64,000 nt of DNA. Source: Trypanosoma brucei. Its lineage: Eukaryota. Where the stretch lies: positions 32,001-96,000 of the forward strand of contig CP000068.1 in the NCBI GenBank assembly GCA_000002445.1. The letters are read 5' to 3'. Shown piece after piece: positions 13,178-13,900 of the stretch. The notes beneath the pieces were generated by a model that saw only the letters and a list, made by a program, of their open reading frames with translations, did not search any database and was not told where the DNA came from. Made by a program: the position numbers and the translations under genes. Each line of letters opens with the position of its first letter. The first letter of the stretch is position 1.

Positions 13178-13900
13178 GTGCAAAAGAATCTTAGACTATT
13201 TGTGGTTGTAGTTCAAAAGAATGCAACTAAAGGATGGTATAGGCTCATATTGAGTGCCAAACTAAGCAATATTGAAATTATTACAATTGCGATGGGAGAT
13301 TTATATAGTCATGTTAAAAGGACTAGATGGGTTGTGGAATTCATAGAAAGTAAGAATGCAAGTAATAAGGATGTTGTAATTCATTTGGATGGGTCTGATG
13401 TTATTGTTAGTGAGAAAGATAAGAATGAGAATGCAGTAAAGTATATTTTATACAAAATAATGCAGATAATGAAAAAAAATTATGGAAGAACATAGTTACA
13501 AAGAACATGTGGAGAGATGTTATTTGCTGTTTTAATGTTGGGCATAGAAAAAAAGAGGATAAGAAGCTACCGCATTTACTAAATAAACTCCAAGTAGAAA
13601 ACCTTATTTAGTGGTGGAGGTTTGATAGCAAGAGTTTTGGCGTTTAAGAAATTTGAATATGGATTTTAAGAGTTACTAAAGGCAAGTGAGGAGTGGCAGT
13701 CGGAGCAAAGTATCTACAAAACCTTGCTATTTTGGAGTGCAAGTCAAGAAGAAGTTGTTGGACAGAGATTTTTTTTGAAGAGAGGAATGATTAGATTGGA
13801 ATATGAGGAGGGATTCTTTTCTATTCCCAATAGTGGGGTGATTGGAGAAGTTCTATTTATTCATTTTCCAGGACAACTAATTGCATAGCAGGAGAAAGTA
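13178..13900 (+). other. Copy A of a ~0.8-kb duplicated module with a 105-aa ORF (unknown family), lying between a 70-bp repeat and the next VSG
   Basis: About 85-95% identical at DNA level to 25583-26400. The ORF reads ...QKNATKGWYRLILSAKLSNIEIITIAMGDLYSHVKRTRWVVEFIESKNASNKDVVIHLDGSDVIVS... The protein-like sequence continues in shifted frames, so it is likely a pseudogene. Family not recognised; ESAG-like or glycosyltransferase-like is speculative. Confidence 0.45.

Follow-up and report, generated by a model that had tools for sequence, protein, structure and literature searches.

The 64,000-nucleotide stretch of Trypanosoma brucei DNA analysed here, referred to as the window, covers the inner edge of a subtelomeric VSG array. 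Seven VSG genes or pseudogenes, all on the + strand, lie between ~4300 and 27825, and each is preceded by 70-bp repeat units. By Pfam typing, the VSGs at 4304-5714, 7520-8743 and 18401-19924 belong to class A and those at 14534-16165, 21825-23320 and 26596-27825 to class B; the VSG at 10918-12292 receives no class from this typing. The sole intact VSG in the window is that at 18401-19924 (507 aa, with a class A N-terminal domain and a C-terminal domain), the remaining six being frameshifted, stop-interrupted or truncated. The unit at 12572-12665 is matched by the 70-bp units at 5837, 16474, 20129 and 24955, which precede other VSGs. A (TAA)~53 tract at 3329-3492 forms the TAA-rich portion of the 70-bp repeats preceding the first VSG and is far longer than those of other cassettes.

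The boundary between the array and the chromosome core lies at an ingi retroelement and an RHS fragment, beyond which core-type genes are found:

~27870-33100, - strand: degenerate ingi retroelement (ORFs 28265-33099), with endonuclease, reverse transcriptase, RNase H and zinc-finger ORFs, in three pieces.
33101-33898, - strand: RHS N-terminal fragment, directly abutting the ingi element.
40589-41551, - strand: 2OG-Fe(II) oxygenase gene, just inside the array boundary.
44126-45349, - strand: intact gene for an invariant surface glycoprotein of the ISG65/75 family, likewise just inside the array boundary.
47857-51567 and 53265-56888, - strand: two tandem receptor-type adenylate cyclases (GRESAG4-like), core-type genes.

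The adenylate cyclase pair looks like a case of patchy conversion between paralogues. Sampled 300-bp segments of the repeat range from 97-99% identical down to 81%, and the two proteins diverge in three places: around residues ~425-520, in an insertion beyond the transmembrane region, and in the tail at the C-terminus. No Rfam match at the gathering threshold was found anywhere in the window.

In two of the array cassettes, designated A and B, a decayed protein-coding sequence occupies the interval between the 70-bp repeat and the VSG:

12572-12665, + strand: 70-bp repeat unit bounding cassette A on its upstream side, with core TGTGAGTCTGTATATACTAATATTATAATAAGAG.
13070-14076, + strand: ESAG3 pseudogene copy A, beginning with its original ATG (13070) and reaching the C-terminal codons (tblastn E = 3.6e-94).
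13178-13495, + strand: 105-aa ORF picked out in a preliminary description of this DNA, corresponding to ESAG3 codons ~37-127 plus an out-of-frame tail, with a GTG start downstream of the stop at 13124.
13184-13408, identical to 25585-25809, + strand: 225-bp tract of 100% identity, the longest exact run in common, covering ESAG3 aa 42-116 including the DxxD motif.
13442-13443 (copy A) and 25843-25844 (copy B), + strand: 2-bp (TA) insertion, between ESAG3 codons 127 and 128 in both copies.
14534-16165, + strand: VSG pseudogene of cassette A, with a class B N-terminal domain, frameshifted, its ORFs broken, C-terminal domain present.
~24910-25045, + strand: 70-bp repeat units bounding cassette B on its upstream side, recognised by reading the sequence, with a BLAST match at 24955-24980 to the cassette A unit.
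~25471-26561, + strand: ESAG3 pseudogene copy B, with its ATG at 25471 and aligned from codon 8 at 25489 (tblastn E = 1.5e-97).
25603-25899, + strand: 98-aa ORF in copy B picked out in the same description, corresponding to ESAG3 codons ~37-127.
26596-27825, + strand: VSG of cassette B, with a class B N-terminal domain (VSG_B E = 5.4e-43) and a probable ATG at 26653.

The order of elements is the same in both cassettes. In cassette A, the 70-bp repeat ends at 12665 and is followed by the pseudogene at 13070-14076 and the VSG from 14534; in cassette B, the repeat extends to ~25045, the pseudogene runs from 25471 to 26561, and the VSG begins at 26596 or, from its probable start codon, 26653. The cassette A VSG matches the Pfam VSG_B profile at 14680-14946 (E = 1.9e-6) and 15020-15322 (E = 2.1e-10), and no C-terminal domain is seen in the cassette B VSG before the adjoining ingi element. 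The preliminary description, which was made from the letters and an ORF list, had placed 70-bp repeats upstream of both copies and VSGs downstream at 14534 and 26596, and this layout was recovered here. The peptide that it quoted is encoded by both of the ORFs that it named, as the ORF list and the sequence show. Its duplicated module of 0.8 kb is indeed a duplication, well outside what chance would produce, the size of which has to be revised upward to ~1.0-1.1 kb. Self-BLAST of the window yields two pairs of segments that link the copies, 13109-13481 with 25513-25882 (88.7% identity) and 13500-13915 with 25989-26401 (75.4%), and none elsewhere in the window; independent repeat finding in the window recovers the same two pairs. 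The two homology blocks are separated in copy B by ~90 extra bases that have been lost from copy A.

The identity of the duplicated sequence was established by homologue searches with frameshift-corrected translations. When the translation of copy B was compared with 5.8 billion proteins, a single match was obtained, a 368-aa T. brucei protein (E = 7e-99, 68% identity, 91% coverage) whose 90% cluster has 15 members that are mostly named ESAG3 in nr/UniRef. Full-length ESAG3 used as a query in the same type of search retrieves its own cluster only, and an exhaustive HMMER search for the wider family collects 46 representatives. Against ESAG3 sensu stricto, the corrected translations are 55-62% identical (BLASTP E = 1e-128 to 1e-157), with copy A at 55-59% (E down to 1e-135 against the ESAG3 cluster) and copy B at 60-62% (E down to 1e-157); against full-length (>250 aa) GRESAG3-like representatives, identity is at most 31%. 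A frameshift-aware dynamic-programming alignment of the ESAG3 protein to the DNA covers aa 1-368 in copy A and aa 8-368 in copy B, so that the start codon and signal-peptide region of ESAG3 are represented in the aligned pseudogene DNA. Such full-length alignment, together with the greater identity to ESAG3 than to GRESAG3-like proteins, implies that both elements are full-length pseudogenes of the ESAG3 lineage. No further copy was detected at E < 1 by tblastn with ESAG3 across the window, which bears out the earlier observation that the other five VSG upstream regions lack the module.

ESAG3 (Fam53) is a long-known family that is found throughout subtelomeric loci, where most copies are pseudogenes (PMC6152948), and the earlier suggestion of an unrecognised array-associated gene family therefore does not stand. 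[quoted passage not shown] The preprint presents a cryo-EM structure of ESAG3 with AlphaFold/Foldseek analysis, names LH3/PLOD3 as its closest structural relative (RMSD 2.4 Å), and lists D110/D113, G215-216, W242, E244/Q245 and H297 as catalytic residues (10.64898/2026.01.27.701950); these residue numbers fit the 368-aa protein used as the reference here. Pfam searches at E ≤ 10 with both pseudogene translations return GT_PLOD (PF25342) only, and ESAG3 itself returns GT_PLOD together with a chance PaO match. The GT_PLOD scores of 12.9-16.5 bits are under the gathering threshold of 27 bits, and a PDB sequence search gives only weak LH3 matches (E = 0.03-1.4). These weak matches agree with the GT-A fold and LH3 relationship described in the preprint. 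Of the two database comparisons proposed earlier, that with ESAG3 gave a strong, full-length match, and that with GT67 glycosyltransferases found no support in Pfam; a GT67 identity was rejected because GT_PLOD is the only family that appears.

Both copies carry numerous disabling lesions. Copy A contains three in-frame stops (13124, 13667 and 13886) and six frameshifts (13442, 13474, 13530, 13585, 13608 and 14048), and it lacks 36 codons overall, of which ~31 fall in a single gap at about aa 140-175. Copy B contains five stops (26192, 26282, 26377, 26419 and 26425) and seven frameshifts (25537, 25572, 25843, 26085, 26336, 26361 and 26524). Both copies keep the codons for D110, D113, G215, G216, Q245 and H297; copy A has Q in place of W242, and copy B has a stop in place of E244. 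With the reading frames broken in both copies, the state of the catalytic codons is moot. Because of the stops and frameshifts, neither copy retains an intact ORF with a signal peptide, and the copies show the many independent disabling lesions and the lost codon-position bias that are expected of decayed pseudogenes; the location in a subtelomeric VSG array is likewise that of ESAG3. The copies were accordingly filed as ESAG3 (Fam53, sensu stricto) pseudogenes, and not as functional members of the family.

The short ORFs that first drew attention to the module correspond in both copies to the N-terminal third of ESAG3. Each begins with GTG, offers its first in-frame ATG only at the internal Met of ...IAMGDLY, and lacks a signal peptide. 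They are cut off from the start codon and signal-peptide region of ESAG3 by the stop at 13124 in copy A and by the frameshifts at 25537 and 25572 in copy B. In both copies the N-terminal ORF ends because of the same 2-bp TA insertion, which is followed soon after by a stop, and the sequence at the insertion (GTAAAGTA followed by TATTTTATACAAAAT) is identical in both. The insertion lies 34 bp outside the 225-bp identical tract. It could have been inherited from a common ancestor, have been passed on by conversion, or have arisen by recurrent slippage in TATA, and is not necessarily ancestral. The parallel peptides in shifted frames noted downstream of the ORFs are in agreement with the frameshift-aware alignment. 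Neither ESAG3 nor any other plausible protein can come from either copy, and the open N-terminal stretch is a remnant.

The apparent conservation of the two copies at the protein level had been taken as a sign of selection on a real gene. It is accounted for by the 225-bp tract. Within the limits of the ESAG3 homology, the copies are ~70% identical (ungapped) outside the tract, and the chance of a 225-bp exact run on such a background is ~1e-32. Judged from the sequence, the tract bears the signature of a recent short gene conversion event, either between both copies or from a third ESAG3 pseudogene; its edges are sharp, and the two pseudogenes are 12.4 kb apart. Outside the tract, the distance between the copies (~70% DNA identity) is about the same as that from either copy to expression-site ESAG3. 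Mismatches in this part fall on codon positions 1, 2 and 3 at rates of 29.6%, 25.6% and 34.5% (chi-square p = 0.18), in a test based on a DNA-only MAFFT alignment. A dN/dS comparison, which had been proposed in the preliminary description, gives ~0.44 outside the tract with a protein-guided codon alignment that is biased towards low dN. This value was not taken at face value because the alignment is built to maximise amino-acid similarity, and because the DNA-only test, with near-equal divergence at the three positions, shows no significant bias. No clear trace of purifying selection is seen between the copies. The catalytic core (aa 42-300) has 70-80% amino-acid identity to expression-site ESAG3, and the termini have 30-45%. 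This better preservation of the core suggests that some of the divergence arose under selection, when the ancestors of the copies still functioned, or that functional relatives repeatedly patched the core.

Collectively, these observations indicate, with a probability of roughly 95%, that the module consists of two independently decayed copies of ESAG3, each occupying the spacer from 70-bp repeat to VSG in a silent cassette of a T. brucei subtelomeric array. No evidence contradicting the identification as ESAG3 pseudogenes was met in the analysis. The observation made in the preliminary description is confirmed and its interpretation is supported in part.

The term VSG co-transposed region denotes the stretch from the 70-bp repeats to the VSG, which a switch copies together with the VSG itself. 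Both pseudogenes sit exactly in this interval, and because of that location they would be copied during duplicative transposition. Their position and the published arrangement of two expression sites suggest that the ESAG3 pseudogenes are passengers, carried in the interval that accompanies the VSG if conversion is initiated in the 70-bp repeats. Passenger copying of this kind is probably also how ESAG3 pseudogenes reached positions downstream of the 70-bp repeats in the Lister 427 expression sites BES7 and BES15. In Table 1 of Hertz-Fowler et al. 2008, an "ESAG3 psi 3' of 70-bp repeat" is entered for BES7 and two such pseudogenes for BES15 (PMC2567434), so that the layout of 70-bp repeat, ESAG3 pseudogene and VSG has already been published.

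The two dead ESAG3 copies have joined in recent homologous exchange, and the remnants may conceivably give extra homology for recombination. A stronger form of this idea would be that the remnants are exapted non-coding elements, kept as upstream recombination homology with ESAG3 copies of expression sites or of other arrays and altering the manner or the frequency of activation of the linked VSG. Engagement in homologous exchange is indeed shown by the 225-bp perfect tract, recombination breakpoints in expression sites coincide with ESAG3 loci (Hertz-Fowler et al., PMC2567434), and ESAG3 is the sole ESAG without separation into expression-site and non-expression-site clades, that is, the only one that moves between the two kinds of locus (PMC3605285). 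However, ~70% identity, many indels and near-equal divergence at the codon positions give no sign of selective retention; amino-acid identity of ~60% to expression-site ESAG3 implies a low DNA identity and hence a poor substrate for homologous recombination; and the remnant is absent from five of the seven cassettes in the window. Exaptation is therefore regarded as quite unlikely.

The shared orientation of the two remnants, their matching position with respect to the 70-bp repeat and the VSG, and the class B type of both linked VSGs would also be explained if one whole VSG cassette had recently been duplicated, the module being merely part of a segmental duplication. The limits of the homology argue against such an event. 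Homology between the cassettes spans the ESAG3 coding region only, from the start region to the C-terminal codons. Local alignment of A with B over the 400-480 bp from the 70-bp repeat to the ATG is no better than that of shuffled sequences, and scores for the stretch from pseudogene to VSG are within the shuffle range, the distance being ~460 bp in A and ~90 bp in B. With unrelated flanks on either side of the ESAG3 region, there is no larger module common to both cassettes. The linked VSGs have 32% amino-acid identity over 171 residues, and the ESAG3 copies, at 70% identity outside the patch, differ in their stops and frameshifts. For these reasons (unrelated flanks, divergence of the VSGs, and lesions that are not common to both copies) a recent duplication of the cassette was rejected as very improbable. 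A very old cassette duplication may have occurred and would leave the verdict of ESAG3 pseudogenes unchanged.

It is scarcely credible that the ~100-aa ORFs represent a real, previously unrecognised protein-coding family travelling with certain VSG cassettes, since the identical 75-residue core of the 105- and 98-aa frames, which might seem to speak for one, is identical in DNA over 225 bp and thus points to recent copying and not to purifying selection, the GTG-initiated frames are separated by lesions (13124; 25537, 25572) from the ESAG3 start and signal peptide and are both ended by the same 2-bp insertion, homology to ESAG3 runs ~240 codons further in other frames, and ESAG3 is the only match among 5.8 billion proteins. 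The 3 and 5 stops and 6 and 7 frameshifts of copies A and B, and the lack of an in-frame ATG or signal peptide in the ORFs, likewise dispose of the description of the module as a real gene.

An association with class B VSGs is apparent among the few cassettes that can be compared. An ESAG3 remnant lies between the 70-bp repeat and a class B VSG in four of four known cassettes, namely the two in the window and those of BES7 and BES15. Among the expression sites tabulated, only BES7 and BES15 have an ESAG3 pseudogene entered on the 3' side of the 70-bp repeats (PMC2567434). VSG3, VSG11 and VSG615 are the class B VSGs named as O-glycosylated in the preprint (10.64898/2026.01.27.701950); VSG3 is located in BES7 and VSG11 in BES15. 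In the window, the two class B VSGs with a remnant carry Ser/Thr in the loop that corresponds to the glycosylation loop of VSG3 (GCAGSSANTYGYW and YTGSGDTNGGRW); the remaining class B VSG (21825-23320) lacks both an ESAG3 remnant and Ser/Thr in the corresponding loop (QCNGGAQGK*). In that VSG pseudogene, an in-frame stop at 22775-22777 replaces the expected second Cys of the tip loop (QCNGGAQGK*VYYK). The chance that all four would be of class B is ~0.06 if the cases are treated as independent, and in a tiny, non-independent sample this is not significant. ESAG3 remnants might mark a lineage of class B VSG cassettes as relics of a mobile unit that carried a class B VSG together with its own O-glucosyltransferase gene, an unlikely proposal; common descent of the cassettes may be all that lies behind the pattern. 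Since ESAG3 is the reported O-glucosyltransferase of class B VSG, the association provides a cheap hypothesis for genome-wide testing.

As it stands, the finding matters little: ESAG3 pseudogenes are known to litter the VSG arrays of T. brucei, and the arrangement of these two further members has already been depicted for two expression sites. Of some use is the 225-bp patch: lying in dead genes, it records short-tract conversion between silent elements of the array cleanly and without the influence of selection. Short-tract conversion is the process that is also thought to build mosaic VSGs.

The closest system for comparison is the ESAG3 of expression sites, to which the pseudogenes are homologous over the whole 368 aa, including the codons of the DxxD motif, the Gly-rich loop and H297. 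They differ from it in being broken, in lying in a silent array, and in having 55-62% amino-acid identity to it, whereas expression-site copies are at least 90% identical to one another. The LH3/PLOD3 glycosyltransferase domain is the only Pfam or PDB family that is touched, with a match over the Rossmann-like N-terminal part that contains DxxD; this match is below threshold, and the relationship is thus one of fold and not of membership. LH3 modifies collagen hydroxylysine, and ESAG3 puts alpha-glucose on Ser/Thr of VSG. The VSG co-transposed region resembles the present case in that the pseudogenes fill that interval, but it is defined by copying during switching, and here it is recognised by position. 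BES7, with VSG3, and BES15, with VSG11, have the same order of elements as cassettes A and B, and the VSG is of class B in all four cases; the difference is that BES7 and BES15 are telomeric expression sites and the cassettes in the window are internal to an array. The ESAG3 pseudogenes of subtelomeric loci (PMC6152948), and of the VSG arrays, in which ESAG3 "is also" found (PMC3607257), share with copies A and B the family, the kind of location and the non-functional state, and the two copies in the window are of one kind with them.
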